Below, in pieces: positions 2 to 18,984 of a stretch of DNA of 20,073 nucleotides (the first letter of the stretch is position 1; each line of letters starts with the position of its first letter). Origin of the DNA: a virus (taxonomy: Duplodnaviria > Heunggongvirae > Uroviricota > Caudoviricetes). The stretch is taken from positions 130,713 through 150,785 of IMG/VR virus record IMGVR_UViG_2910649936_000002; one strand, given 5' to 3'. Both the position numbers and the translations under genes were made by a program. A model generated the notes under the pieces. That model saw only the letters and a list, made by a program, of their open reading frames with translations. It did not search any database and was not told the origin of the DNA.

Positions 2-1203
2 GATTCTTACTGGCAAAATTTAGTCAAGAATGGTGCTATAGATATCACAACTATAACTGATGAGTCATTGAAAGAAAGTATTGACGAATATCGGGATTGG
101 TATGAAAAAGCCCTTGACGTGCAAGACACGATTGCAGACATGCAACAAGAATTACTTGATCTTGCCGTTGAGAAACTAGAAAATATAGAACAATATTTCG
201 AAAATCGTACCGATTATAATGATAACTTCGGATATCTTACCCCTCTTACTACTCTACAAGAAGCTGTAGATAAACTAACAAAAGAACTGGACAAGCAAGT
301 TTCTGACGGTGTAATTAAAGAGTTTTCTAACGAGTGGTATGAAAGCATGGAGCGCATTAATTCAGCGCAAGAAAAACTTTTTGAAGCCACTCTTAAAAAG
401 TATCAAGACATTATAGATAATCTTACTCGCATTAGTGATACTCTGGATAATTCCATTGCATTAAAAGAAGCTCGTGATGAACCGATTCTTGAATCTGATT
501 ATCAAAAGCAAATGGATATTAGTAATAAATCCATACAAGAATTATACGATAAACGTCAGGTATTATTAAAACAACAGGCAATTTATGATGTAGGTTCTGT
601 AAAATACGACGAAATCGCGGACGAGATTGCTGATATTGATGACGATATTTATGGACTTCTTACTGACATTGAAGAACTTAAAGATAAAATCTGGGAAGTC
701 AGATGGCAGCCTTTCTTTGATGGTCAGGAAGCATTGTCAGATCTAATTGATGAGACTGATGAATTTAGAAATCTTTTGGATTCTGATGCGTTTGTAAGTG
801 AAACTGGTGGATTGACGGATTCAGGTTTGGCTAATATTGCTTTAATAAGCCAATCTATGAATGCGGCGAAACAATCTATTGCAAATTACAGAAAAGCATT
901 AGAGAATCTACAAAAAGATTATGATAACGGTAATATCTCCTTAGAAGAATATAAGGAGAACAACAAAGAGTTTATCAATAATATTGCGGAAAATGTTGGT
1001 GTAGTTGAATCCTACAGGGACGAAATCGTTTCTCTTTGGGAAGAGATGGTTAAGGCAGAAAATGATGTCATCCAAGATTCAATTGATAAGCATCGTGAAC
1101 TTTTACAAGCGAAAAAAGATAATGACGATTACAGTAGAACTGTTAAAAATCAAGTTAAGGATATCAATGCGCTTCAGGCACAGATATCAGCGTTAGAATC
1201 GGT
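2..1203 (+). CDS. Tail tape measure protein, exon 1 (begins upstream of the window; interrupted by a group I intron)
   Basis: Frame 2 is open from base 2 (DSYWQNLVKNGAIDITTITDESLKESIDEYRDWYEKAL...), so TTG at 68 is not the true start. Acidic, helical/coiled-coil composition, upstream of Dit and Tal. The exon ends at ...GAA TCG GT (U1203), the predicted 5' splice site. Confidence 0.85.
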
Positions 1204-2750
1204 AAATATATTGCCGAATGTGTTTTAATTGCTGGGAACTCCTAAAGTTCTATAAACTACAACATAAGCATGAAATAAGGCTAAGTGTGAATGTGTGAAA
1301 ATTATAGAAATGGATATGCTAGATGCAATCTTCTAGGTCATAGACGTAAAATGGACAATCAGCAGCGAAGCCTCGAATAGAGGAACGTTCAACGATCAAT
1401 GGGTGATGAGTGTAACCCATGTAAGACCGCAAGCGATTGGCGGTTTGAAACAAACACACTGTTTATTAAGCAATTAAATATTATTCATAGAATCACGTTG
1501 AAACATACGTGATTTTTTCTTGCGTAACCTTATAAATCAAAAATTTAAAAAGAGAATAAAAAGAATGGAGGTGGAAAATGTTAGTAGAAAAACAAAAGAT
1601 TGAAGTTAGGTGGAATGGGAGCAATCGAAAATGGTATGAAGAAAAAGGGTATAAATTTACCAAAATAAGAGATGGTTTTATCGTCAAACCAGAAGATTTG
1701 CCTGATTACTCTCATCATAAAGTTGAAGTTATTTGTGATTTTTGTAATCGTCAATATATTTTAGAATACAGAGACTACTTAAAAAATATTAAAAGAAATA
1801 ACAAAAAATTTCATTGTTTTATTTGTGGAAACAGAAAACATATTAAAAACATTAATCATTCTACCTCAAAAAATAAGCTTTCCGTTGATGAAGTAATTAA
1901 AAGAATAGAGAGTAAAAATAAAAATAAATTGTTAAATCCAGAAGATTATAAAAATCAAAACACATCAAATTTGAAAGTATTGTGTGGTAGTTGTGGCAGT
2001 GAGTTTCTGACAAGTCTTAGTTCTATAAAAAATGGTGATGGAGCCTGTTTGAAATGTGCAAATAAAAAAACAAGTGAAAAGCAAAAACTTTCAAGCGAAG
2101 AGGTCAAACGAAGAATTGATGCTGTAAATAATAATAAATTGTTAAATCCAAAAGATTATAGAGATAATCATACACCAAACCTAAAAATAAAATGTGGGGA
2201 TTGTGGTGAAATTTACGTGACTACACTCGCAAATTATGAATATAATCAAAAGATACGATGCGATAAATGTTCTCAGAGAATAAGTGTTCCAGAAAGAAAA
2301 GTTATGGAATTATTAAATTTCTATAGTATCAATTATAAATATAACTATAGATTTTCTGATTGTAAAGGAAAAAACAGAGCACTTCCTTTTGATTTTTGGA
2401 TTGAAGATTTAAACACTATTATTGAAACAGATGGAAGACATCATTATCATTCCGTATGGGGCGAAGAACATTTTCAAAGAACAAAATTATACGATGGAAT
2501 AAAAGATAAATATTGTAAAAATAAGAACATACAACTTATTAGAATTCCTTATTGGGAATTTGATAATATAGAAGATATCTTAATAAAAAAATTAAATTTA
2601 AAACCTCTTAATCAAAACAAAAAAATAAAATACATACCCAAAAAGAAAATTGCTTAATTTTACAGAAGATATGATCTGAACTCATAGGAAACTATGAGGA
2701 GAGTGCTACTACTCTCCCACTTATGTAGCGAATAAGTGGAAACATAATTG
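1204..2750 (+). ncRNA. Group I self-splicing intron (IA-like) with an ORF in the P8 loop
   Basis: P1: exon UCGGU(1199-1203) pairs with GCCGA(1213-1217), with U.G at the splice site. P element AATTGCTGGGAA at 1227-1238, Q element AATCAGCAGC at 1357-1366, P7 GATCA(1394-1398)/TGATC(2672-2676) within S element AAGATATGATCT. P9 hairpin CTCATAG-GAAA-CTATGAG at 2681-2698, terminal G at 2750. Removal gives in-frame ...ALES-V-NNESAKAELKRL... Confidence 0.93.
1578..2657 (+). CDS. Intron-encoded putative homing endonuclease: repeated CxxC Zn-ribbon modules plus a C-terminal Vsr/DUF559-like (EDxHD-type) nuclease domain
   Basis: RBS GGAGGTG upstream. Six CxxC pairs, a duplicated module (KLLNPxDY...NLKxxCGxCG), and C-terminal PFDFWIEDLNTIIETDGRHHY...D..K...C..KNIQLIRIPYW. 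Very Lys-rich; lies between the P8 strands of the intron. Confidence 0.85.
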   Translation: MLVEKQKIEVRWNGSNRKWYEEKGYKFTKIRDGFIVKPEDLPDYSHHKVEVICDFCNRQYILEYRDYLKNIKRNNKKFHCFICGNRKHIKNINHSTSKNKLSVDEVIKRIESKNKNKLLNPEDYKNQNTSNLKVLCGSCGSEFLTSLSSIKNGDGACLKCANKKTSEKQKLSSEEVKRRIDAVNNNKLLNPKDYRDNHTPNLKIKCGDCGEIYVTTLANYEYNQKIRCDKCSQRISVPERKVMELLNFYSINYKYNYRFSDCKGKNRALPFDFWIEDLNTIIETDGRHHYHSVWGEEHFQRTKLYDGIKDKYCKNKNIQLIRIPYWEFDNIEDILIKKLNLKPLNQNKKIKYIPKKKIA

Positions 2751-4167
2751 AAACAACGAAAGTGCCAAAGCAGAACTTAAGAGACTCAGGAGTCAATTAG
2801 CTGATGCTGAAAGTGAACTTGAGCAAACGCAGAAAGATCGTGAATATGAGATAAGACAAAGTGGATATGATTCACTCAGTAGCGACCTTAACGAAGCACT
2901 TGATGATACTTTAAATAATGTCAAGTATAATGCTTCTGAGCAAGAGCAAGTTATTTCTGAAATGTTGAATCATATTGTTAATAATTACGCTGATGCTTAC
3001 GATAAAATAAATGAAATCATTCATAACACTGGCTTCACGCCATCAAAAGATTTTCAAGAAAATATCAATAACATAGGTTCACAATCTGGTGCTGAAAGTC
3101 AAGTTAATGATAGTAATACTATTGCTCCTGAATATAAGCCAGATGATTTCGTTACAGATACACCAACCGATCAGATTCAGTCTGATTCAAGTCAAGCGAA
3201 TAATGATAGTATAGAATCTGAAATTGAAAAAGAGCCTAATATAGATAATCGTCCCGTTGCATTAATTGAATTAAAACCTAAATCTGTATCTGTACAGGAA
3301 GGTAAAAGTACAACTATAACTGCTAATATCCGTCCTACGGATGCAGCAAATAAAAAAGTGCAATGGACATCATCAAATACTAGTATCGCAACAGTTAGTA
3401 ATGGAACTGTCAAAGGTATAAAGCCTGGTAGTACAACAATTACATGTATGGCAATGGATGGTTCGGGAATATCTGCTACATGTGGCGTGACCGTTACAAA
3501 AAAGCCTGATCCACCTAAGCCAAAACCGCCATCTTCTGGTGGGGATGGAATTCCGCGAGTAGGTGACGTTGTAACCTTTACAGGTACGTATTACTATGAT
3601 TCTTGGGGACAATCCCCAGCCGGGAATTTATATTCCGGCGTTAAAGGTGGCGTTGTTATTGATAGCTACTCTGGCACAGAATACGGAGGTTCTTCAAGTT
3701 TTCACGGAGGTTTGGGTATTCATATTAAAAGTGCCGATGGCAGATATGGTGATTTGGGATGGGTATCGCTTAGTCAAATTAGCGGATATGCAAAAGGTAC
3801 TAGAGGTGTTACTTCTGCATTAGAAATTGCTAAAGTTAACGAACTTGGCACAGAGCTAATCATGAGACGTGGTGGAGATGATTATACTGTATTGCAATAT
3901 GGTGATGCCGTTTTACCTAAAAACTTGAGTGATAACATGTTTACTTTAGCTGGACATGCAAATGAGATCATAAGTGGACTTGGAAATAATACTACTAATA
4001 GAGAACTTTCTATTACTAACCATTATGATAGTTTATTGACTGTGAATGGGAATGTGGATAAAAATGCATTACCTGAATTAAAGAAGTTACTTGAAGAATC
4101 TTATCGTTATACCTCTCAAAAATTGTACAAAGACGCTGGATTCATGGGAATGAAGAGAAAAATATAA
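2751..4167 (+). CDS. Tail tape measure protein, exon 2 (C-terminus with an Ig-like Big_2 domain and an SH3-like region)
   Basis: Frame is open from 2752 (NNESAKAELKRLRSQLADAESELEQTQKDREYE...) into the 2962 ORF. Big_2 pattern at ~3253-3498 (IRPTDAANKKVQWTSSNTSIATVSNGTVKGIKPGSTTIT). The ending GYAKGT...VNELGTELI...GDAVLP is typical of tape measure C-termini. Confidence 0.85.
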
Positions 4168-4187
4168 TATATTAATGTGCAATTCTC

Positions 4188-4196
4188 TGTTAAAAT
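4188..4196 (+). promoter_or_regulatory. Possible extended -10 promoter (TGnTAAAAT) for the moron
   Basis: TGTTAAAAT about 30 nt upstream of ATG 4228. The region is very AT-rich, so a chance match is possible. Confidence 0.35.
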
Positions 4197-4227
4197 AATT
4201 ATAAATATATTAATGGAGGATTGCACC

Positions 4228-4701
4228 ATGTCAATTGTAATTAAAAACCAAATTCAAATTCCATCAGTTTCTGTTATGCCCGGCTTCGGTTCAAAAATTA
4301 ATTTGTCTTCTAATACTACCGTAACAGCGCGTGAATGTAAATTATTTGAAATTGCATTACATATGGTCTGCAAACTATATCAGCATGAAAAGCGTAACTT
4401 ATCTGAATTTCCTAAAATGAACATTCTATTTACTTATGATTTTACTTTCGAATTTCAAAATAATAGTGCTACAAATTTAGGATTATATATGAATCTCATT
4501 ATATATTCAATGCAAAATATAAGAAATAATATTATTACGGAATTAAATTATTTGGCTATATATATTGAAGAATTATGTCACTGCGTTTGGCATATTGATG
4601 ATGAGTTAATAGTAAAAAACAAAGTAATTGAAGTATTTAAATTGTCTGGATTAAATGTTACAGAGGAATTATTTTATTTAAAAGGAGGTAAGGTCGAATA
4701 A
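4228..4701 (+). CDS. Hypothetical moron protein (157 aa) with an EELCH zincin-like motif
   Basis: GGAGG RBS precedes ATG 4228, which is preferred over GTG 4177. Very AT-rich. Contains YIEELCHCVWHIDDE. Lies between the tape measure and Dit genes. Confidence 0.7.
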   Translation: MSIVIKNQIQIPSVSVMPGFGSKINLSSNTTVTARECKLFEIALHMVCKLYQHEKRNLSEFPKMNILFTYDFTFEFQNNSATNLGLYMNLIIYSMQNIRNNIITELNYLAIYIEELCHCVWHIDDELIVKNKVIEVFKLSGLNVTEELFYLKGGKVE

Positions 4702-4874
4702 TGTCGTCAAATGAAGCTTCCAACAAATCTCGTGATTCATATTATGACACAATTATTAATGACTTGATTAACGATCTTCATCAGGAAGAAGCTATAAATT
4801 TATCTTGTTCTGACTGGAAGGTAAATGTTACTAACATTACGCCTTATACATTAGATAAAAGTAAGACTGTATAA
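4701..4874 (+). CDS. Small hypothetical protein (57 aa; MSSNEASNKSRDSYYDTIINDLINDLHQEE...SKTV), not in the ORF track
   Basis: TAATG stop/start overlap with the upstream gene, AAGGAGGT RBS at 4682-4689, and a terminator-like hairpin downstream. Confidence 0.65.
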   Translation: MSSNEASNKSRDSYYDTIINDLINDLHQEEAINLSCSDWKVNVTNITPYTLDKSKTV

Positions 4875-4894
4875 TTGTAATATAAGTATTTATT

Positions 4895-4929
4895 GAGGTG
4901 TCATTATGGCACCTCTAATTTTATTTTTT
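4895..4929 (+). terminator. Intrinsic terminator-like hairpin after the moron
   Basis: GAGGTGTCA-TTA-TGGCACCTC stem (one G.U pair) followed by TAATTTTATTTTTT. Confidence 0.65.
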
Positions 4930-4950
4930 AAGTGAGGTGATAAATAAAAA

Positions 4951-6033
4951 ATGATATTAGTGTGTAAAGATTTCAACTATGACAATAAATCTCTTATAAA
5001 TCAAAAATATATGTCTGTAAATTTTGAAGATGATACTAGTCTACCATCTTCTATTTCTCGTACTATGGAAACAAGCGATATGAATAAATATCGCCCTGAA
5101 GAAAATGGTTTTGGTATTACATATTCAGAAGTATTAGAATTTGAGGTGCACATTGTAAAGAATTTTGATGAATTCACATCACAATCCGAAATGGAGTTTT
5201 CTAATACCGAATACGAAAAGCTAGTTTCTTGGTTGACGTCGCCACAAACCAATCAATGGATGGAAGTCACAAAAGAAAGTGGAGAGAAAACCAAAGTCAA
5301 AGGTTACTTCTCTTCTGTTGAGCCATACGATAATTGGGGAATTTGTTATGGAGCAAAATGCACTTTTACATGCAACTCTCCGTTCTCTTATACTAGTAAG
5401 GAAATAGAACAGACTATTTCCGGTGTTACAAATTTCCTTGTCAACAACGAAAGTAGCGAATTATATGATTACGTATATCCTACACTCTTAATTGAGCCTA
5501 CCAAAAATGAAGAAATCTATATCCATAATTTATCAGATTCAATAATTCTTGAAAATAGTACAATCACACTTTCAGAGGATACCAGTTCAAACATCACCGC
5601 ACTTCAACAAAAAATTTCTTCTTATGCAGCTTTAAATAATCTAACCGTTGAGTATGTCATTGATGATACAACACAAGACTTAAAACTGATTTGTGATAAT
5701 ACTGGATTGCTATTTTATATGACGGACTCATACGGTATTAAAAATAAATATGTTGCTTATTATTTGAAAGCGGATGGACAATATTTTATATGTCAAAGTG
5801 GATTTTTCTACTGCAAATTATCTCAGGCGTTGAAAGTTAAAATTAATTGTAAAAATCTTGGAATGTATGATTCATTAGGGCGCCCTGTTCTTTTTGACAC
5901 TATGGGTATTCAGGATGAAGATGAAATATATTGGCTTCGTTTGATACATGGAAATAATAGTTTCAGGGTTATGGGAAATTGTAAAATAACTATCTCCTAT
6001 CTTGAAGCACATAAAGGAGGACTAATTTCATGA
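4951..6033 (+). CDS. Distal tail protein (Dit)-like
   Basis: Lies between the tape measure and Tal genes. GAGGTG RBS. Dit-like motifs: N-terminal DFNYDNKSL, LVSWLTSP, FTCNSPFSY, and C-terminal WLRLIHGNNSFRVMGNCKITISY. Confidence 0.75.
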   Translation: MILVCKDFNYDNKSLINQKYMSVNFEDDTSLPSSISRTMETSDMNKYRPEENGFGITYSEVLEFEVHIVKNFDEFTSQSEMEFSNTEYEKLVSWLTSPQTNQWMEVTKESGEKTKVKGYFSSVEPYDNWGICYGAKCTFTCNSPFSYTSKEIEQTISGVTNFLVNNESSELYDYVYPTLLIEPTKNEEIYIHNLSDSIILENSTITLSEDTSSNITALQQKISSYAALNNLTVEYVIDDTTQDLKLICDNTGLLFYMTDSYGIKNKYVAYYLKADGQYFICQSGFFYCKLSQALKVKINCKNLGMYDSLGRPVLFDTMGIQDEDEIYWLRLIHGNNSFRVMGNCKITISYLEAHKGGLIS

Positions 6034-8774
6034 AAATTAATCGTGATTTTTATAATCGAAATGAGCCGTCTCGGATTTATCTGTCTACTCCAAACAAGCA
6101 ATTATTATGCGCTTTAAATAGTGTAGATATAGATAGTGTAGATTTTCAAGGGAATTGCAATGACATATCTACTATAAGCTTCAATATAAACCAGTATATT
6201 GAGGATGATTCAGGAAGGCAAATCGAAGCAAATGGATACCAACTTATATCTAAATATACGAAATTATATGTAACAAATATTGGCTGGTTTATATTAGGAG
6301 CACCAGAAACTCATCATAATGGAACGTATGAATATAAAACAATCAATGCTTCTTCTGCTCAAGTTGAATACAGTCAGGTTCCTCTTGATGGTTGGAAGGT
6401 AAATCGTGGTACTACAGATTCACTTGAAATGCTCGTCGAAGGTAATGTAGAAATTATTAACGATGTAGAGTTCGCAAAAGAAAATATCAAATTTCATTAT
6501 CCCGAAAAACCCGAATTGAGTTTAGTAGATATAATAGTTTCAAAGGTTCCCGGTTGGCAAGTCGGCTATGTAGATAACATCCCTAAAACTTATGAAAGTA
6601 TTGAAAATGGAGAAATTGTTACAAAAGATGTACTACTCGCAGATGAAGTGGGTACGTTTGATATTAACTCTAGTAACTGTTTCTCTTTTTTAATGCAAGA
6701 TTTTGAAAAATATTTTAATTGTGTTGTGGATTTCGATTATTTAAATTTTGTAGTTAATTTTTACAGAGTAGAAAATTTTGGAAAAGATACAAGCGTTACG
6801 ATTGGATTTAGAAATATTGAAAATTCTAACGACGTTGTAATTGACGAAGATAATATTTTTACTAAGTTTCGTGTTTCAGGTGGAGATAATCTTGGCATTG
6901 AACAATTTAATGGCGGAAGTAATTATCTTACAATTATTGAAGACTATTGGTTAAATAACAAATATCTAAGTGACTCTACTATTCAAAAATATAAGGCTTG
7001 GACTGCATTTTGTAATGTTGCAAGATATCAATATGGGGAATATTCTAAAACATGGAATACGTTGCAAGAAGAAATCTCTGAATTATATAATCGTATTCCA
7101 GTCAGTGATTGTGATCCTAGTAATTGGTCTAGTTTAAGTGATTCTGCTTTACTAAATTTAAAATCGGATTACGAAGCTCAAAAACTAGGATATGAAAAAA
7201 TATATGTAGATGATGAAGGAAACTTCGATATAGAAGCATTAGACGCTTCACCAGATGCAAATACCTATCATCAAATTGTAGATACTATTCTTCCTAATAT
7301 TGACATAGAAATTAATAACAGAGGTTTGGAGTCCTCACTAGATATTGAAGATTATATAGATAATTATTATACAGACTGGGATTATTATGGTATTAATGAG
7401 CTTACTATAAGATTACAATCCTATCAAGATATTGTAAATCTATTGAAAAAAGATCACTATGATTTAACTTGGGAAGAATATCAAGAAAAATCAAAGGAAG
7501 ACATTGAAAAATACCCAGTGCAAACTTCAGACGGATTTGAGGACAAGCACAATGAATATATAAAAAATGCAGAACAGTTAGATGATAGCAATATCGATTC
7601 ATGCGCATACGCTTTGAAACAAAGGCAAACCGAAGCAGATATAAAACAAGAACAGCAAGACGAAGTTAATTCAAACCGTTCTTCTCTAGCACAAAAAATG
7701 GATATGAAAACATGGCAGGGACAAGAAACTTTACAAAGTGAAGCTTCAACTGGTTTCACCCAAAAAGAGTTGGATGAGATATCACATATAATTAATCAAA
7801 GTACATATGTAAATGAAAATATATTTGTCTCTTCTACCGAAGGACTTACAGATACAATATTGATGCAGCAAAAATTATGTGAAACTGCTCTTGATGATTT
7901 ATCTGCATATTCTATACCCCAAGCTACTTATACGACTACAATGAATAATATACTTTCTGCCTTTGGAAATGAAATGCATGCACATGATTTATATTATGGT
8001 AATTTTATTAGACTTGGACTTACAGATACATATTATGTAAAATTACGAGTTATGAGTATATCCTTCAATCCATGCTTATACAATAACGACTTTACTATCC
8101 AGTTTTCCAATATGATTAAGTCTGGAAAAGCTCGTAATGATTTTGTATCACTTCTAGATATGGCTGGAAATCTAAGTAACTCATCTGTAGACACTAGTTA
8201 CTCCGGCAATCCACAAATTACTGATGACAACATCTATCAACTTTTACAAAAGTTATTGCAATCCTCTGCCTTTAACAATAAAGTAGACCATATCGTAAAC
8301 AATAATCCAGGAGGAACCGGAAACAGCTATCTTAAACCAGGCGATATTTATCAGAATAATGGTTTTTTTCAGTATATTCAGTCTGAATTAATTGCTGCCG
8401 GAGAAATTGTTGCGAATAGTGGAGATTTTAAAGATTTACAAGCATTAGTTGCTGCCATTGATAATTTGTTGGCTGGCAATGTAAGTGCAGAACTAGCCCA
8501 TATTATCAATCTTACTGCTAAAAATGTAAATATCGATGAAGCTGTAATTCGTGATTTAATTGCTGCTCAAATAACTGTATCTATGCTTCAGGCAGGTGAT
8601 ATATCTGCAAATAAATTTCATATCATTTCCGATGATGGAGGGCTGTCTATTGTTGGAAATACAATGCAGTTTAAAGATAAAAACGATACTGTACGCATAC
8701 AAATTGGAAGAGATTCTAACAACGACTTTACTTTTGTATTATATGATGAAACAGGCAAGGGAATACTTATTGAT
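6030..8774 (+). CDS. Tal/tail spike (baseplate hub) protein, exon 1
   Basis: ATGA overlap with Dit and an AAAGGAGG RBS. N-terminal hub-like region, then GNFIRLG...VKLRVMSISFN and repetitive beta-rich segments. The apparent TAA (8775-8777) is the first three bases of the IStron. Confidence 0.8.
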
Positions 8775-9240
8775 TAAATGTGAGCCGCACACTTGTGACT
8801 TTAGTCATGAGTTAGGCTGACAAATAGTCAGTGTATAGGGAAACCTGTACATAGAGACGTAAAACCGTCCAATATACTACCTGAATTGCTGGAAATGCGT
8901 AAAGCTAAACTAACTACAACATAAGGATGAAACATACCTAAGTGTGAATGTTGCGAAAGCAGAAAAAATAGTTTAGATGGAATATGGTTAAATCCTAAGT
9001 TCTATACATTTACAAATCGCAAATCAGCAGCGAAGCTCCAAATAGGAGAACGTTCAACGACCATTCCTCTTGAGGGAAGTACATGCAAGCGCATGGAAGT
9101 GGGTAGACCCTAACGTGTGATGACGAGGGATAAGATATGGTCTGTGCTTATGTGAAAACATAAGAAGTTCATAAGAGAACTGTATAGGAAGTAGCGTTCC
9201 TATATGAACGACAACCTCGAAAACGATTAAAGAACCTATT

Positions 9241-10440
9241 GTTCTTATCTATTTATTTAAAAATTTAATATTTCTCGCTTTCAAACGGAGAATAAATAAA
9301 GTAGAAGGCGAGGTGATATTGTGGAAAAAGCATTTAAATATCGAATTTACCCAAACAAAAAACAGCAAGAGTTAATTCAAAAAACTTTTGGGTGTGTAAG
9401 ATATGTTTATAATTATTTCTTAGCTTTAAGGATAAAAGAATATAAAGAAAACAAAAATTTTTTATCTTATAATGATACAAGTAAGTTACTTACTCAATTA
9501 AAGAAAGAACTAATCTGGCTGAAAGAACCAGATAAAGATTCTTTGCAGAAATCGTTAAAGGATCTGGATATGGCATACCGAAAATTTTTTAAAGAACATG
9601 CTGGTTTTCCAAAATTCAAGTCTAAGAAAAATAATCATAAATCTTATCGGACAAGTCGTACAGCCAACAATATTACTTTTGTAGAAAAGCATATTAAGTT
9701 GCCAAAACTTGGATATGTAAAAACAAAAGATAAACAAATTCCACAAGGAAGAATTTTAAATGCTACCATCTCACAGGAACCAAATGGACATTATTATTGC
9801 TCATTATGTTGCACAGATGTTGAAATGCCACAATATCAAAAAACTCGTTCTAATGTTGGAGTAGATTTAGGTATTGTAGATTTTGCCATATTATCTGATG
9901 GAAATAAAATTGAGAACCAAAGATTTTATGAAAAATCAGAAAAGAAGCTTGCTAAGTTACAAAGATCAATGTCAAGAAAAACAATTGGCGGTAAGAATTG
10001 GAACAAAGCGAGAATTAGAATTGCAAATTTACAGAAACATATTTCTAATCAACGTACTGATTTTTTACACAAACTTACAACAAAGATTGTTAAAGACTAT
10101 GACGTTATCTGCATTGAAGATTTAGAAGTCAAGTCTATGAAAGAAACTGATTATACAATAAGGAACAAACGAGTTAGTGATGTTTCTTGGTATGAGTTTC
10201 GAAGACAATTAGCTTATAAATGCCAATGGTACGGAAAGCAACTTGTCATTGTAGATAAATATTATCCCTCATCACAGATTTGTAGTGCGTGCGGAAAACG
10301 AGATGGTAAGAAATCAGAAGATATTAGAGTGTGGGTATGCCCTCATTGCGGCGCAGAATTAGACAGGGACTTAAATGCCGCAACCAATATTTTAAATGAA
10401 GGATTACGAATATTAAATAGTTAAATAAATAGATAAGAAC
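9241..10440. repeat. Perfect 20-bp inverted repeat flanking tnpB (9241-9260 / 10421-10440)
   Basis: GTTCTTATCTATTTATTTAA and TTAAATAAATAGATAAGAAC. Pairing extends imperfectly to 9263-9272/10409-10418 and 9235-9239/10442-10446. Confidence 0.9.
9321..10424 (+). CDS. tnpB: TnpB RNA-guided endonuclease (IS200/IS605 OrfB)
   Basis: N-terminal KAFKYRIYPNKKQ...FGCVRYVYN (HTH_OrfB_IS605). RuvC residues in GVDLG, IEDL and DRDLNAATNI are all intact. Zn finger SSQICSACG...CPHCG. GTG start with GAGGTG RBS. Confidence 0.96.
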   Translation: MEKAFKYRIYPNKKQQELIQKTFGCVRYVYNYFLALRIKEYKENKNFLSYNDTSKLLTQLKKELIWLKEPDKDSLQKSLKDLDMAYRKFFKEHAGFPKFKSKKNNHKSYRTSRTANNITFVEKHIKLPKLGYVKTKDKQIPQGRILNATISQEPNGHYYCSLCCTDVEMPQYQKTRSNVGVDLGIVDFAILSDGNKIENQRFYEKSEKKLAKLQRSMSRKTIGGKNWNKARIRIANLQKHISNQRTDFLHKLTTKIVKDYDVICIEDLEVKSMKETDYTIRNKRVSDVSWYEFRRQLAYKCQWYGKQLVIVDKYYPSSQICSACGKRDGKKSEDIRVWVCPHCGAELDRDLNAATNILNEGLRILNS

Positions 10441-10548
10441 CGTAGGAACTACGGGGATAGCCTAGGTAAACTTGTCTCGTTAGAGATATTGACTAGGAAC
10501 CCTATGACTTTAGTCGTGGGAGGTTCAGTCAACAGGTGTTAAAGATTC
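10425..10548 (+). ncRNA. Predicted TnpB omega-RNA/reRNA (scaffold in the right end; guide from flanking exon 2). Boundaries approximate.
   Basis: Hairpin CCGTAG-GAA-CTACGG just after tnpB, right-end hairpin at 10501-10520, element end at 10528. The guide would begin TCAACAGGTGTTAAAG. Based on established TnpB biology. Confidence 0.7.
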
Positions 10549-13060
10549 AGCTATTAGCGATGGACTAATAAAAAATGACATGATTGCTAATGGTACGATA
10601 CAAAAAGATAAACTTGGTTTTAAAGTTGTTGAAACAGATGAAAACGGAAAGGTTTCTATTACAGAAATATTAGATCCAAGCGGAGGTTCTCTCGGTGTTT
10701 CATACACCGAAATGCAAAATAAAGTAAAGGATCTTGGTGAACAAGTAACGGAAATTACTCCATATACAATTGTAATGGAAAATGAATATCAAAATATTCC
10801 CTGTGTTCAAGGTACTGCAAAAGACAGTTTTTTAATTGAAATTCCATTTACTGGATATGCTGGAAGTCTTCAAACCGCTACAACCGTAAATGTAGGTGTA
10901 TTACCTTCTGGTATTACATTAGGTTCTAACACCCCTGCAACTGATACTAGTTCTGGAAAAGTCGTTTTAAATGTAGCAGATGGAGCAGATTTTGGTGGTA
11001 TAGATATACTAACAGGATATATCATTTTAACATTTACTATTAATAGTCATGTAATTACCAAACGTTTTACATGGACAAAAACAAATGATGGTTCTTCTTC
11101 TGATGCTTCCTTTTATACCTTAGATTTATCAACTCAAATTGTTTTAAAATCCGATTCATCTCTCACTCCCCCATTCATTACTTTGAATTCATATTTAAAA
11201 CAGGGTACTTCTAAAACTCCATATTCTGGTAGGTTTGTTATTAAAGAATCCACAGATGGTTCCACGTACAATACAAAATATCTTTCTTCCTCTGATGAAG
11301 CTTCAAAGGAATATACTATATCTTCCATTGATGTAAAATCTATTGAGTGTATTTTATTCGAATCTGGTGGAATTACAAATGAATTAGATGTGAAAACTAT
11401 AGCTGTAATCACCGACTCTAGTTATTTAGAGTCCGAAATCACGCAAATTACAGACACAGTTACCGAATTAAGTTCAACTGTTGATATGCATACAAAGGAA
11501 ATATCGCAAAAAGCATCACAGACTGATGTAACAACCGCTATTAACAATTATGATAATACTACAGTAGAGACTATACGTGAGCAAGTAGCGGAACATACTA
11601 CAAAAATTGGTGAAATCACCTCTGAAGTCTCTGATGTAAAAACTACGGTAAACACTAAAGCTGACGGCTCTACAGTTACAGAATTACAAAAACAAGTAAG
11701 CACTTTGGAACAAGATGCCGAAGGTTTTAAATTAGAAGTTTCTAATACATATGCAACAAAAGATGAGCTTAATGAGTCTTCTGAGACACTTCAATCTACT
11801 ATCGAGCAAACCGCAGCAGGAATTAATCAAACAGTTTCCGATTTATCTGGTAATGTAAGCAGTATTGGTCAAACAGTAGGTGAAATCAGTCAAGAAGTTG
11901 AAGATGCAAAAGGAAATATTACAGATTTGCAGCAAACCTCAGAAGAAATTAGCATGATAGTTGGAAACAAACAAGATTTAATTCCGGCAAATATTCGTTA
12001 TATCAGAGATTGGCTAAATGGAAATACCGTAGATACTGTTAATAGGTGGACAGAAATACAAGTAATAGTAAATGATACAAATTTAGCTTCTGGCGAAACC
12101 AATATTGTTTTACAGAAAAATGTTACTGTCACATCAGATATTACAATAGATAACCTTGAAAATTATATTGATGCAAGTACAGAAACGTATGTCGAAAGCG
12201 AAGAAACTGGCTGGCACTATCTACAAATCGATTTAGGCGAGAACAACACTTTTGATGCTGGTTATATTACTGTTTGGCATAGATTTGATGATTCAAGAAA
12301 ATATAATCATAAATTAGAAATATCAGCAGATGGTGAAACATGGTTTGTTTTATTTGACAGTGAAAAATATGATAAATATACAGAGACAAATGAAGGTCGT
12401 ATGTATATGATTAGCGATGGTTTAGTTAATAAAAATCTCGCTTTTATTAAATTAGATATGCAATCTGTAGTATTGAAAGTGCAGGAAAACGAAGAAAATT
12501 TTGCTTCTATTGAAACAGAAATTGACAGCGTTATTACTCGTGTAGAAAGTACAGAAGATACCGTACAGGAAATTCAAAATGAAGATATACCTGGATTACG
12601 CAATGATGTAAAACAACAGGTAGCGGAAATAGCTGCTACTTCTGATTCTATAAAAAATACTGTCATAGAACTTGAAGGTGAAGTTCAAAGGCAAGCTGAA
12701 GAAATATTAACTACTAATGAATGGAAAGTATCTCTCGCTAACATAGGCGCGTATGATGGGAAATATGCTACTGAAACAGTTAATATGACGCTTACTAGCG
12801 ATGGACTTACAATTGTTAGATCCGCAAGTAAAGGATATAGAACACAGCTTACAGGTGATACAATCGCTATAGAATATGATGATGGACGCGGTAATTATGA
12901 ATCTGTTATGGGTATACAAAAAGATCAAATGTATTTAACACGACTAAAAGTAAAAAATGGAATTGACCATTATACATTAAAAGAGCTTCCTATTTCATAT
13001 ACTTCTGGTAATAAAACAATTGGGTGTCTTGCATTTATTTCAAGTACAGGAAATTCATAA
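10529..13060 (+). CDS. Tal/tail spike protein, exon 2 (coiled-coil stalk, F5/8-type C/discoidin-like domain); spliced product 1758 aa
   Basis: Frame is open from 10529 (STGVKDSAISDG...). Heptad-like Thr/Ser/Gln-rich repeats, and IRYIRDWLNGN...WTEIQV...YLQIDLG...ITVWH at ~11993-12410. Confidence 0.8.
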   Translation, partial: STGVKDSAISDGLIKNDMIANGTIQKDKLGFKVVETDENGKVSITEILDPSGGSLGVSYTEMQNKVKDLGEQVTEITPYTIVMENEYQNIPCVQGTAKDSFLIEIPFTGYAGSLQTATTVNVGVLPSGITLGSNTPATDTSSGKVVLNVADGADFGGIDILTGYIILTFTINSHVITKRFTWTKTNDGSSSDASFYTLDLSTQIVLKSDSSLTPPFITLNSYLKQGTSKTPYSGRFVIKESTDGSTYNTKYLSSSDEASKEYTISSIDVKSIECILFESGGITNELDVKTIAVITDSSYLESEITQITDTVTELSSTVDMHTKEISQKASQTDVTTAINNYDNTTVETIREQVAEHTTKIGEITSEVSDVKTTVNTKADGSTVTELQKQVSTLEQDAEGFKLEVSNTYATKDELNESSETLQSTIEQTAAGINQTVSDLSGNVSSIGQTVGEISQEVEDAKGNITDLQQTSEEISMIVGNKQDLIPANIRYIRDWLNGNTVDTVNRWTEIQVIVNDTNLASGETNIVLQKNVTVTSDITIDNLENYIDASTETYVESEETGWHYLQIDLGENNTFDAGYITVWHRFDDSRKYNHKLEISADGETWFVLFDSEKYDKYTETNEGRMYMISDGLVNKNLAFIKLDMQSVVLKVQENEENFASIETEIDSVITRVESTEDTVQEIQNEDIPGLRNDVKQQVAEIAATSDSIKNTVIELEGEVQRQAEEILTTNEWKVSLANIGAYDGKYATETVNMTLTSDGLTIVRSASKGYRTQLTGDTIAIEYDDGRGNYESVMGIQKDQMYLTRLKVKNGIDHYTLKELPISYTSGNKTIGCLAFISSTGNS

Positions 13061-15959: not shown

Positions 15960-16472
15960 ATGGCGCAAACAAACACTGGAATTATCGTTCCTTTATTTCG
16001 AAAAGTAAAAGAAGGATTTCAAAAAGTATTTATAACGGCAAGTAATATAATGATGGCAGACAATAAAACTACATTGCAAGAAAAAATTAATGATATTGAT
16101 GATGATATTACTACATTAAATAGCAATTTTATAGTTGAAGAGAATAAAAATTCCAATGGGAATTATCGGAAATGGTCTAATGGTATATTGGAAATGTGGG
16201 GGAAGAAAGCACTTAATAATGTTAATATCAATAATCGCCCCAATACTTCAACAACGGTTTATAATTCGATACAATATAGAATCACATTTCCGTTTGCTTC
16301 ATTATCAGAATGTATTATAACCTGTACGAATTATTCAAATACAGGTGCATGGGTATCACTATCTACGGGTGGGGATAGGAAATCCAGTTTCATGTTTTGG
16401 CTTTACTGTTCCCCTACAAGTAGTGGTGGTTCGCATTATGTGTGCTGGCGCGCAATGGGGACATGGAAATAA
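15960..16472 (+). CDS. Small tail fibre/adhesin gene, the shufflon expression locus (52-aa constant part plus cassette A)
   Basis: GGAGG RBS precedes ATG 15960. Short coiled coil TLQEKINDIDDDITTLNSN, then a gp53-like C-terminal domain (YRKWSNGILEMWG...FP..F...WRAMGTWK). A recombination site lies within the gene at 16116-16129. Confidence 0.8.
   Translation: MAQTNTGIIVPLFRKVKEGFQKVFITASNIMMADNKTTLQEKINDIDDDITTLNSNFIVEENKNSNGNYRKWSNGILEMWGKKALNNVNINNRPNTSTTVYNSIQYRITFPFASLSECIITCTNYSNTGAWVSLSTGGDRKSSFMFWLYCSPTSSGGSHYVCWRAMGTWK
16116..16129 (+). repeat. Shufflon site 1, TTAAATAGCAATTT
   Basis: Exact 14-mer, in frame (LNSN) within the expressed gene. Confidence 0.92.
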
Positions 16473-16556: not shown

Positions 16557-16892
16557 CTACATCCATCGCCCTATAACGTAATAATTTGCTCTAATACTAT
16601 AATTCCCAGAGGTTTTATCTACACGTGTTATGGTAGAAGTAGTCGTTCTTTTCGTATTTCCTCCACTGTCAGCTTCCATAATATTAGTCGCAACAGTTCC
16701 ATTATTGGATAATGTGAGTTGTATATAAAAATTAGTGTCTTTAAAAGATATAGGAAAAGTTATAGTTGCCAACTGCGATGTTTTCACTGTTGCAGCAAAA
16801 GTGATATTTCCCCAACATTCTTGTATTCCACTATGCCAGCGTCTATAATATGTCCCATTTTGAACGATATAATCAATTAAATTGCTATTTAA
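16557..16892 (-). CDS. Silent shufflon cassette B (no start codon; 111 aa)
   Basis: Reads from site 2: LNSNLIDYIVQNGTYYRRWHSGIQECWGNITFAATVKTSQLATITFPISF...YYVIGRWM*. Paralogous to cassette A. Confidence 0.88.
   Translation of the reverse strand, partial: LNSNLIDYIVQNGTYYRRWHSGIQECWGNITFAATVKTSQLATITFPISFKDTNFYIQLTLSNNGTVATNIMEADSGGNTKRTTTSTITRVDKTSGNYSIRANYYVIGRWM
16879..16892 (-). repeat. Shufflon site 2 (inverted)
   Basis: AAATTGCTATTTAA, the exact reverse complement of site 1. Confidence 0.92.
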
Positions 16893-16998
16893 TTCAGTAT
16901 TAAATATTCAGAATTATCAAGCACTTATATTTTTATGTATGCTAAAAACACCTGACAATGCCAGATGTCAAATTCAAAATTTGATACTATTTATTGGA

Positions 16999-17988
16999 CT
17001 ATGAACTTAAATATTGATAATGATGATATTTAATACCTTCTTCATTAACGGTACAGTACATCATCGTAGTTTCAGGTTTGGAATGCCCTGCAAATTTCAT
17101 TACTTCTTGCAATGGCATTCCCCTATTTAGGGCATTTGTAAGTGAGGTTCTTCTAAATCTATGTGGGTGTGCATTACTTACATTTGCTTTAAGACCTATT
17201 TCCTTAACAATATATTCAATACCAGATTTACTTAATCGGTTATGCGGATATTTTTTCCCTACGAAAAGAGCTTCATTTTTATCTATCCTACTTTTTAAGT
17301 ATTCTTTTAAATACAAATTACTTTTTTCATTTATGTATACGATTCGTTCTTTTCCACCTTTACCATATACAATTAAATCCTTATTTCCAAATCGAATATC
17401 GGTGATATTTAATGCAACTAATTCAGACACCCTTATGGCAGTAGAATATAAAAATTCTATTAATGCCATATCTCTTATATTTTTACACTTTCTGAGCATT
17501 ATTTCTCGCTCTTCGCTTGTAAATGGCTTTTTTATTTTTTGTTCAACTTTAATGGTTTCTACTAACGCCATTGGATTTATTGATATTTTTCCTCTATCAC
17601 GTAGCCATATAAAAAATGTATTAAATATTGCTCTTACATTTTTCAAAGTTTGGTTGCATGCCTTTCTAATTGCTTTATACATTGTTAGATATTCTGATAT
17701 GTCTGTACTCAAAATATGTTTAACATTTTTATTTATATATGATAATAAACGATGTAATTCATAATCATATCTATTGACAGTTTTTACTGCCAATCCTGAT
17801 AATCGTTTTGATATGATAAAGTCGGATAATTCTTTTGTCCATGTATTATCATTTACACGTAATGTCGTATTTTCAACAATTTCACACCCAACAAAAACTT
17901 GATTCATTGTTGCTTTCAATTCACGTAACTGATTTTCATTTAACACAAATTGCATTTTCCTAATAATTTCTAAAATTTTTTCTTCCAT
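16999..17988 (-). CDS. Tyrosine recombinase (XerC/D-like), putative shufflon invertase
   Basis: Catalytic motifs STAIRVSEL (R), GKGGKER (K), HPHRFRR (HxxR), GHS (H) and TTMMY (Y). N-terminal SAM-like region. GGGAG RBS. Located between sites 2 and 3. Confidence 0.93.
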   Translation of the reverse strand: MEEKILEIIRKMQFVLNENQLRELKATMNQVFVGCEIVENTTLRVNDNTWTKELSDFIISKRLSGLAVKTVNRYDYELHRLLSYINKNVKHILSTDISEYLTMYKAIRKACNQTLKNVRAIFNTFFIWLRDRGKISINPMALVETIKVEQKIKKPFTSEEREIMLRKCKNIRDMALIEFLYSTAIRVSELVALNITDIRFGNKDLIVYGKGGKERIVYINEKSNLYLKEYLKSRIDKNEALFVGKKYPHNRLSKSGIEYIVKEIGLKANVSNAHPHRFRRTSLTNALNRGMPLQEVMKFAGHSKPETTMMYCTVNEEGIKYHHYQYLSS

Positions 17989-18026
17989 TTTCGTTCTCCC
18001 TTTTATTTTTATCTATATATTCTGCG

Positions 18027-18040
18027 TTAAATAGCAATTT
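18027..18040 (+). repeat. Shufflon site 3
   Basis: Exact TTAAATAGCAATTT. Confidence 0.92.
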
Positions 18041-18368
18041 AGTATTAGAATGGAAAAAAACTAATAATGGTTGGTATCGCAAGTGGAGCAATGGCTATAT
18101 GGAAGCATGGGGAACCAGTACAGCAGGAAGTAACGGAGCTGCTGTAGGACTTTCATATCCTGTGAATTTTGATATAACAGAAATGGATGTGAGAGTTCAA
18201 GCAACTGCTTTGTACCATACTGGAAGTGGATATACGGCAAGTTATTCTACAAGTGTGCAACCATATAATGCGGGTAAAAATATGCATATTTATATACGTG
18301 ACGCGAATGGTGAAGTTCCACCGTCAGGCGTAGCAATTAGTTGGTATGCTGTAGGACGATGGAAATAA
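18027..18368 (+). CDS. Silent shufflon cassette C (113 aa)
   Basis: Reads from site 3: LNSNLVLEWKKTNNGWYRKWSNGYMEAWG...ISWYAVGRWK*. Paralogous to cassettes A and B. Confidence 0.88.
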   Translation, partial: LNSNLVLEWKKTNNGWYRKWSNGYMEAWGTSTAGSNGAAVGLSYPVNFDITEMDVRVQATALYHTGSGYTASYSTSVQPYNAGKNMHIYIRDANGEVPPSGVAISWYAVGRWK

Positions 18369-18372
18369 CATG

Positions 18373-18765
18373 TTACTTTAGTTCACAAAAAAATTCCCAT
18401 GTCAAAATAACAGAACGCGGTGGTGATGTTAAATAATATGATAATGATGTCACTATCGCTCTTGAATCTGAAACTTTTAAACCATTATAATTATTGATGG
18501 TAAAAATTCCAGAACAATCACCAGATGAAAAATTTACAAATAATGGCGTTTTTACGTTCATTCCTGTTTGTTTCGGAGTTAATGCTAAATTAGAAATATT
18601 TCCATAATACATGTTACCAATTGTTGAAGATGGATTAAGAGTATCACTCCACGTTCCTATTGTATACATATAACGAATATTATTTATAACAATTATAAAA
18701 CAAGTATATGTATAAGGAGAACTACTGTATTTCTTTAGTGATTCGAATCTTAAATTGCTATTTAA
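18373..18765 (-). CDS. Silent shufflon cassette D (130 aa, divergent type)
   Basis: Reads from site 4: LNSNLRFESLKKYSSSPYTYTCFIIVINNIRYMYTIGTW...LTWEFFCELK*. Open and in frame. Confidence 0.82.
   Translation of the reverse strand, partial: LNSNLRFESLKKYSSSPYTYTCFIIVINNIRYMYTIGTWSDTLNPSSTIGNMYYGNISNLALTPKQTGMNVKTPLFVNFSSGDCSGIFTINNYNGLKVSDSRAIVTSLSYYLTSPPRSVILTWEFFCELK
18752..18765 (-). repeat. Shufflon site 4 (inverted)
   Basis: Exact AAATTGCTATTTAA. Confidence 0.92.
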
Positions 18766-18984
18766 CCCAGTAACTTTTATGAGATAAAATTAGTATAAAT
18801 TCAATTTTGCAACTTACCAATCCCATACATTAAACAATAGTATTCATTTATTCAGTAGATGTTTTCTTCTACTTTTTATTTTTAATTTTCAAATTCGAAA
18901 GGAGAAATTATTATGAGTTTATGCAATGGTATACCATAAGTCACATAGTAATATTATTCAAATTAACATTAAGTTAAATGTATC

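Follow-up and report, generated by a model that had tools for sequence, protein, structure and literature searches.

The window considered here, that is, the whole 20,073-nucleotide (nt) stretch of the viral record IMGVR_UViG_2910649936_000002 to which all positions refer, covers the tail and lysis region of a large phage of the Caudoviricetes, whose nearest relatives are large IMG/VR contigs. It encodes a gene in the tape-measure position, distal-tail (Dit)-like and minor tail (Tal-like) genes, further tail genes, an integrase and an endolysin. Two of these genes, the tape-measure-position gene and the Tal-like gene, each carry a group I intron, hereafter intron 1 and intron 2. Intron 1 holds a putative endonuclease gene in its P8 loop, while intron 2 is an IStron, in which the ribozyme is joined to an insertion sequence (IS) with tnpB. 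The two introns, their parts and their host genes lie on the plus strand, and L-numbers denote related loci gathered for comparison.

Intron 1 (1204-2750) is a group I intron of the IA2 type, with P7.1/P7.2 and P9-P9.2, lying between a partial upstream exon (1-1203), whose last base before the 5′ splice site is U, and a downstream exon (2751-4167) recognized by frame restoration and a Pfam Big_2 domain. Bounded by U1203 and G2750, it can be excised from the sequence to leave the host gene open and collinear with empty alleles. Homologous loci were collected from viral_contigs with the upstream exon as query; the start of the downstream exon, used as query of the same collection, returned no relative. 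Across 20 such loci, site 1 is empty in 8 and interrupted at the same codon in 11, and the last locus ends about 1 kb past that codon. The uninterrupted homolog in L363 is a protein of 2364 amino acids (aa), encoded directly before Dit- and Tal-like genes. As the tape-measure families of Pfam gave no match to the host gene product, which returned Big_2 only, the name "tape-measure" reflects size and position and nothing else. In the predicted fold, the P1 helix (1197-1217; 1199-1217 in a hairpin scan) contains the U-G pair at the 5′ splice site, and the P, Q, R and S elements of the core, the P7 pairing, two hairpins after P7, the open reading frame (ORF) in P8 and P9-P9.2 can all be recognized. 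Specifically, a hairpin of the P5 extension lies at 1255-1294 (sequence match, fold and covariation), Q, P6 and R lie at 1357-1397 (sequence, with a profile score of 46 bits), and folding places the S element, P9, P9.1, P9.2 and the terminal G at 2666-2750.

The ORF in the P8 loop (1578-2657) encodes 359 aa that combine treble-clef zinc-finger repeats with a Vsr/EDxHD-like nuclease domain (PF14311, E=4e-9; PHROG endonuclease families). A profile of 10 related C-terminal domains has as its top match in the Protein Data Bank, a weak one at E=0.0047, the structure 3r3p, which is the nuclease domain of the EDxHD homing endonuclease I-Bth0305I (PMC3239194). Residues E239, D272 and D306 of the window protein align with E170, D196 and D222 of I-Bth0305I, and the catalytic histidine falls one residue off. 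Because three acidic residues align but the histidine is offset, the product is likely, and not more firmly than that, an EDxHD/Vsr-like homing endonuclease. Like it, I-Bth0305I is reported as intron-encoded and with a C-terminal Vsr-like nuclease domain, whereas its N-terminus is of the NUMOD2 type and that of the window protein consists of zinc-finger repeats (Taylor et al. 2011, PMC3239194). Relatives of the P8 protein occur at 59 loci, and a regular-expression search finds the ribozyme core motif nearby in only 4 of them; most may be free-standing or reside in other contexts. Site 1 lies in a conserved gene, is fixed in position and varies in occupancy, as homing predicts, and the empty allele in L361 matches 34 of the 40 bases flanking the site. 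In turn, nothing identifies intron 1 as an IStron, as it has neither a left-end hairpin nor a tnpB match and its site is fixed across phages.

The same tape-measure site holds other cargo in related phages. In particular, the intron of L360 carries a NYN domain (L360:10967-11788; PF01936, E=1e-14) and that of L366 a longer, related zinc-finger endonuclease (L366:10964-12496), both within ribozymes 83% identical to intron 1, and that of L367 a PBECR4 nuclease (L367:11262-11909; PF18813, E=1.5e-20). A literature search on the NYN cargo returned unrelated papers only. The PBECR4 protein is accompanied by a divergent ribozyme in L367 and in five other inspected loci. The P9.1-P9.2 region of the ribozyme in L367 (10604-12067) is closer to group A IStrons than that of intron 1 is, and a mosaic ribozyme is suggested for this locus.

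Intron 2 (8775-10528) is found further downstream. A Dit-like gene (4951-6033; PF20195, E=9e-14, with a weak match to phrog_33) precedes the Tal-like gene, whose upstream exon (6030-8774; phrog_6211, E=1.5e-20) ends in the TTGAT target (8770-8774) and whose downstream exon (10529-13060) is recognized by frame restoration and a phrog match. Excision of 8775-10528, between U8774 and G10528, gives an open frame for a Tal-like protein of 1758 aa. Both intron boundaries in the window are thus set by comparison and not by motif alone, because empty alleles and restored frames support them.

Intron 2 has the features of a group A (IS605-type) IStron with tnpB only. It is inserted after TTGAT, one of the target motifs of this group besides ATTAT and TTTAT, without target duplication, ends in TCAG, carries subterminal palindromes at both ends (a left-end hairpin at 8791-8812, defined by sequence and fold, and its twin at 10501-10520), and its IS part follows P9.2 and GAACGA. 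The ribozyme core (8884-9211), defined by fold and covariation, includes a P5 hairpin (8912-8951), a GAAA arm (8951-8962), a receptor-like arm (8983-8999), Q (9022), R (about 9052), the P9.2 loop (9191) and GAACGA (9206-9211); P1 with the exon did not form in the isolated fold of the 5′ end. Next, an inverted repeat of 38 nt, 89% complementary, with its 5′ arm at 9235-9272 and its 3′ arm at 10409-10446, surrounds tnpB (9321-10424; 367 aa; PF07282, PF01385 and PF12323), in which the RuvC triad D182/E266/D350 is intact. The ORF list holds no tnpA within intron 2, a gene that is optional in this group. Position and fold place a predicted omega-RNA scaffold from 10425 to 10528, continued to 10548 by a guide taken from the downstream exon, a function proposed after bioRxiv 10.1101/2023.11.20.567912. 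The best named match of intron 2 is in Clostridioides phage ES-S-0173-01 (81% over 342 nt). Site 2 is empty in all 14 homologous loci that cover it, as expected of recent transposition, and TTGAT is present at the site in 11 of them. Since the predicted guide matches these empty alleles at only 13-16 of 20 bases, its targets would be closer relatives than those sampled. The right end of the IStron (10434-10577) also gives a match in Rfam, at 32.7 bits and far below the gathering score, to Ref70 (Enterococcus small RNA (sRNA) 70), a family that may itself be an IS605 omega-RNA.

The ribozyme parts of the two introns share four exact matches of at least 11 nt, at 1255/8912 (14 nt), 1281/8938 (14 nt), 1357/9022 (15 nt) and 1383/9048 (13 nt), the longest being 15 nt; three more exact matches of 11-13 nt fall in A-rich ORFs. 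Overall similarity amounts to 79% over 68 nt, 82% over 50 nt and 64% over the ribozyme segment, and is homology and not chance. The original prediction had described these motifs as peripheral sequence shared in addition to the core. All four are where it placed them, but the 1357/9022 and 1383/9048 motifs are the Q and R elements of the catalytic core itself (P4/P6 and J6/7-P7), and the remaining two are the two strands of one hairpin of the P5 extension. This region is conserved as a structure, because compensatory changes affect 23 of the 31 predicted pairs of P4-P5 among 33 introns; P7 likewise shows one compensatory change between intron 1 and intron 2. A final hairpin with GTAGCG in its loop is indeed found in both introns, at 2725 and 9191, and, as had been noticed, intron 1 stops 11 nt beyond it, at G2750, whereas intron 2 runs on through tnpB to G10528. 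The span first assigned to the pair contains real elements but misses the intron ends.

The distribution of these elements extends well beyond the window. Among 112 introns chosen solely for the core pattern, 61 have a P9.2 loop with TAGCG or TAACG, and the exact P5 hairpin variant is carried by TTGAT IStrons, by IStrons of group B type, by introns with endonucleases in P8 or P9 and by ORF-less introns, 12 genome stretches having it besides the viral ones. In order to place the pair, 257 candidate ribozyme cores were retained, after the removal of 61 (37 without S, 19 without P, 4 without R and 1 at an edge), and clustered to 219, with 3′ parts assigned by profile. Much of this sample was selected through the shared motifs, so that counts of close relatives are inflated, and the 112 core-picked introns are the subset drawn without these motifs. 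CdISt1 was represented by the TTGAT elements L002, L010 and L353, the last being Clostridioides phage ES-S-0173-01, and the T4 td and nrdB introns were fetched as an outgroup and kept outside the tree; they score at most 14.5 bits against the core profile. In the motif-enriched set of 218 other introns, intron 2 ranks 27th by distance from intron 1, behind two other IStrons, and by distance from intron 2, intron 1 comes 87th. For both introns there are relatives with 83% identity, those of intron 1 being the ribozymes of L360 and L366.

A maximum-likelihood (ML) tree of 95 rows, chosen by us from the 219 clustered introns, assigns the two to separate, well-supported groups, although its backbone is unresolved and its bootstrap not fully settled. 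Specifically, intron 1 falls in a clade of 4 rows of introns with ORFs in P8 (98/99), and intron 2 in a clade of 20 rows led by TTGAT IStrons (100/99). The P5 extension distinguishes the groups further. The GAAA-loop arm and the receptor-like arm, which resembles the 11-nt tetraloop receptor, are both present in 11, both absent in 31 and singly present in 3 of 45 introns (Fisher p=9e-8, uncorrected for kinship). Of 24 IStrons, 23 have both arms, and intron 1, L360, L366 and L158 have neither. Their pattern suggests that, in intron 2 (8951-8999) and in the family, they may form an internal tertiary contact. The main text of PMC13521648 contains neither "receptor" nor "P5a"; figures or supplements of the published work may already show this P5 submodule, or the half-IStrons mentioned below. 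The P9.1 signature of the IStron type is likewise missing from intron 1.

These observations are most likely explained by two independent invasions of the tail cluster by cousins of one widespread ribozyme family, one through homing at a fixed tape-measure site and the other through IStron transposition. Intron 1 would have arrived by the action of its protein-guided endonuclease, which would cut empty tape-measure alleles during co-infection. Intron 2 would have come as a ready-made IStron, inserted at a TTGAT that happened to lie in frame by a TnpA that acted in trans or has since been lost, and TnpB, using a guide derived from the downstream exon, would keep it in place. Each ribozyme is predicted to fold locally and to splice itself out. 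The sequence that they share would then reflect common ancestry, with the core, P5 hairpin and P9.2 loop also under structural constraint.

A number of points weigh against this interpretation. Among the 112 core-picked introns only 4 lie nearer to intron 1, and only 13 nearer to intron 2, than the other member of the pair does, which puts the pair in the top 4-12%. With the tree backbone as it is, a test does not reject the union of the 4-member and the 20-member clades (p=0.074). The precise form of the P5 hairpin present in both introns is uncommon, with 30 stretches of viral_contigs against about 5000 estimated for the core pattern. Finally, the intron 1 hairpin differs from that of intron 2 at 5 of 40 positions, but from those of its three closest relatives at 7, 7 and 9. 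The first three of these points, together with the 64% identity, are what would be expected if a single lineage had recently split into a branch with an endonuclease in P8 and a branch with IS and TnpB, intron 1 standing near the IStron ancestor. Sisterhood of the two introns is nevertheless rejected (approximately unbiased test, p-AU 0.0052). Moreover, intron 1 is more distant from intron 2 than 85 of the 93 long-P5 introns of the motif-enriched set are, it is devoid of the P5 submodule and P9.1 signature of IStrons, and the IStron clade includes the non-IS introns L040, L252, L302 and L303. For the pair itself such a recent split is therefore improbable and largely refuted. The original prediction of one intron lineage with two enzymes holds in so far as both introns belong to one broad IA2-type family and carry their enzymes where it placed them, and fails in that they are not sisters. 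The condition named as refuting it, a pair no closer than unrelated IA introns, does not apply, given the 4 and 13 closer introns out of 112, the median identities of 44-46% for short-P5 introns and the fact that the T4 introns barely score.

The likeness of the P5 hairpins could alternatively stem from gene conversion within this genome, the hairpin having been copied from the IStron into intron 1. In addition to the low number of differences between the two copies, intron 1 agrees with intron 2 and differs from L360 and L366 at four positions, forming two base pairs. Against this, all 5 differences between the window copies fall within the stretch that would have been copied, and the tract of intron 1 is closer to those of 26 of 217 other introns of the motif-enriched set than to that of intron 2. 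L004 and L224, which belong to the wider clade of intron 1, stand at 2 and 3 differences, and the pair concerned toggles between A-U and G-C throughout the family (18 versus 14 of 33). Since L004 and L224 are nearer still and the 5 differences lie inside the tract, an ancestral state accounts for the likeness, and copying within the genome is very improbable.

A further possibility is that the shared sequence acts in cis, that is, that mis-splicing from 1203 to 10529 or recombination between the introns regulates or rearranges the tail operon, as the original prediction had allowed. The two introns do lie on the same strand and in the same gene cluster, and the four bases after P7 of intron 1 complement the four that precede the terminal G of the IStron, a pairing that is off the usual P9.0 register. 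The junction 1203|10529 is, however, out of frame, with stop codons 11 codons past it, and its product would lose the tape-measure C-terminus, the Dit protein and most of the N-terminal exon of Tal, so that three genes would be hit. The longest exact match measures only 15 nt, and small ORFs and a terminator-like hairpin separate the host genes (weak, consensus-based evidence). Splice sites of group I introns are set by the local folding of P1, P9.0 and P10, which also counts against such a function. Judging from the DNA alone, a role in cis is hardly credible.

Related systems are known. All IStron ribozymes have been described as IA2 introns of common ancestry, with several fusions to IS and with IS-less relatives in Fusobacterium and Turicibacter (Tourasse 2014, PMC4227781), and a 2026 review restates two origins of IStrons (PMC13565253). 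The group A IStrons of the former work, CdISt1 among them, share with intron 2 the insertion after TTGAT, the terminal TCAG, the subterminal hairpins, the IS part downstream of P9.2 and GAACGA, the inverted repeat that encloses the ORF and the in-frame TAA start, and ORF B only, as in intron 2, is a state listed for CdISt1. The phage-borne IStrons of its Table 1 all belong to group B, whereas intron 2, which sits in a phage tail gene, is of group A; the IS-less relatives of that work, unlike intron 1, are not described as endonuclease carriers in the passages of that paper devoted to them. Such carriers appear in a tree in which introns related to IStrons are labelled for TnpB or homing endonuclease (Zedaveinyte, bioRxiv 10.1101/2023.11.20.567912, Fig. 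1D), and TnpA, TnpB or many homing endonuclease families are reported there with recurring gain and loss among close relatives. The general kinship between IStrons and endonuclease introns that had been deduced from the window is already in print (PMC4227781; bioRxiv 10.1101/2023.11.20.567912). As for the setting, the Bacillus cereus group prophages have IA1 and IA2 introns in tape-measure and tail genes like those of the window (TMP-IVS1/2/3, terminase and tail-tube introns), with homologs at different sites that have different P1 helices and homologs invaded by unrelated endonucleases (Tourasse and Kolsto 2008, PMC2504315). They differ from the window in site, phage group and endonuclease family, and in the account given there they have no adjacent IStron.

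Other features of the window deserve mention. Between the two host genes, at 4177-4915, the ORF list and a hairpin scan give small unrelated ORFs followed by a terminator-like hairpin (4895-4915). This AT-rich insert consists of an ORF of 157-174 aa (phrog_33355, with an EELCH motif), a short ORF and the hairpin, is absent between the same genes in L363 and is a possible moron. Toward the other end, inverted repeats of about 25-30 nt at 16084-16139, 16876-16902, 18019-18051 and 18741-18773 surround small tail-fibre-like ORFs, which occur on both strands and to either side of the integrase gene (16999-17988), and the region looks like an invertible tail-fibre cassette. An Rfam scan of the window gave 2 matches at E<=1, with no group I family among them, a miss of the library and not a failure of the introns to qualify as group I.

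The survey of related loci bears more directly on the origin of IStrons. Introns without IS ends occur inside the TTGAT IStron clade in L040, L252 (two introns), L302 and L303, and in L302 a DUF7487 ORF lies directly behind P9.2, the slot used by IStrons. Endonuclease-bearing introns much closer to IStrons than intron 1 do exist (L302). These introns could possibly be IStrons that reverted to fixed-site introns, which is not established, as monophyly of the 15 IS-ended rows is not rejected (p=0.16). In L091 (2364-4070), an intron in a terminase-like gene has an ordinary P1 and 5′ end, no visible IS left end, a tnpB with RuvC motifs following P9.2 and, like group B IStrons, a 3′ end in CGG. No second copy of this element was found among 45 TnpB relatives, the nearest being at most 50% identical over most of the length, and its layout makes it a candidate "half-IStron" or RNA-guided homing intron. 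Moreover, an intron in L380 (560-2410) also encodes TnpB and ends in CGG; it apparently lies between genes or at the start of one. L274 has on its minus strand, at about 2340-2900 of the oriented locus, a miniature group A IStron that lacks an ORF but whose two ends and ribozyme are intact.

One might speculate, with considerable doubt, that large phages of Firmicutes are a workshop in which modules are swapped in two directions. That is, fixed-site introns would gain a TnpB/omega-RNA tail behind P9.2 and home in an RNA-guided manner before acquiring a left end, as in L091, and IStron ribozymes would shed their IS parts to become fixed-site or endonuclease introns, as in L040, L252, L302 and L303, with tail clusters like that of the window serving as exchange sites.

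The window itself adds one group A IStron and one tape-measure homing intron to those known, and indicates that one tail cluster can tolerate both. The pair does not locate the origin of IStrons, at which the original prediction had seen a hint: the two introns are not sisters, each has relatives at 83% identity elsewhere, intron 1 is without the P5 submodule, L302 is closer to IStrons, and the kinship with endonuclease introns was already published. More useful than the pair is the intron survey, with its candidate half-IStron and its non-IS introns inside the IStron clade, and L091 and L302 are better leads on IStron origin. In particular, L091 and the non-IS introns lend themselves to a direct test of the sequence of events by which ribozyme, TnpB and transposon ends came together.

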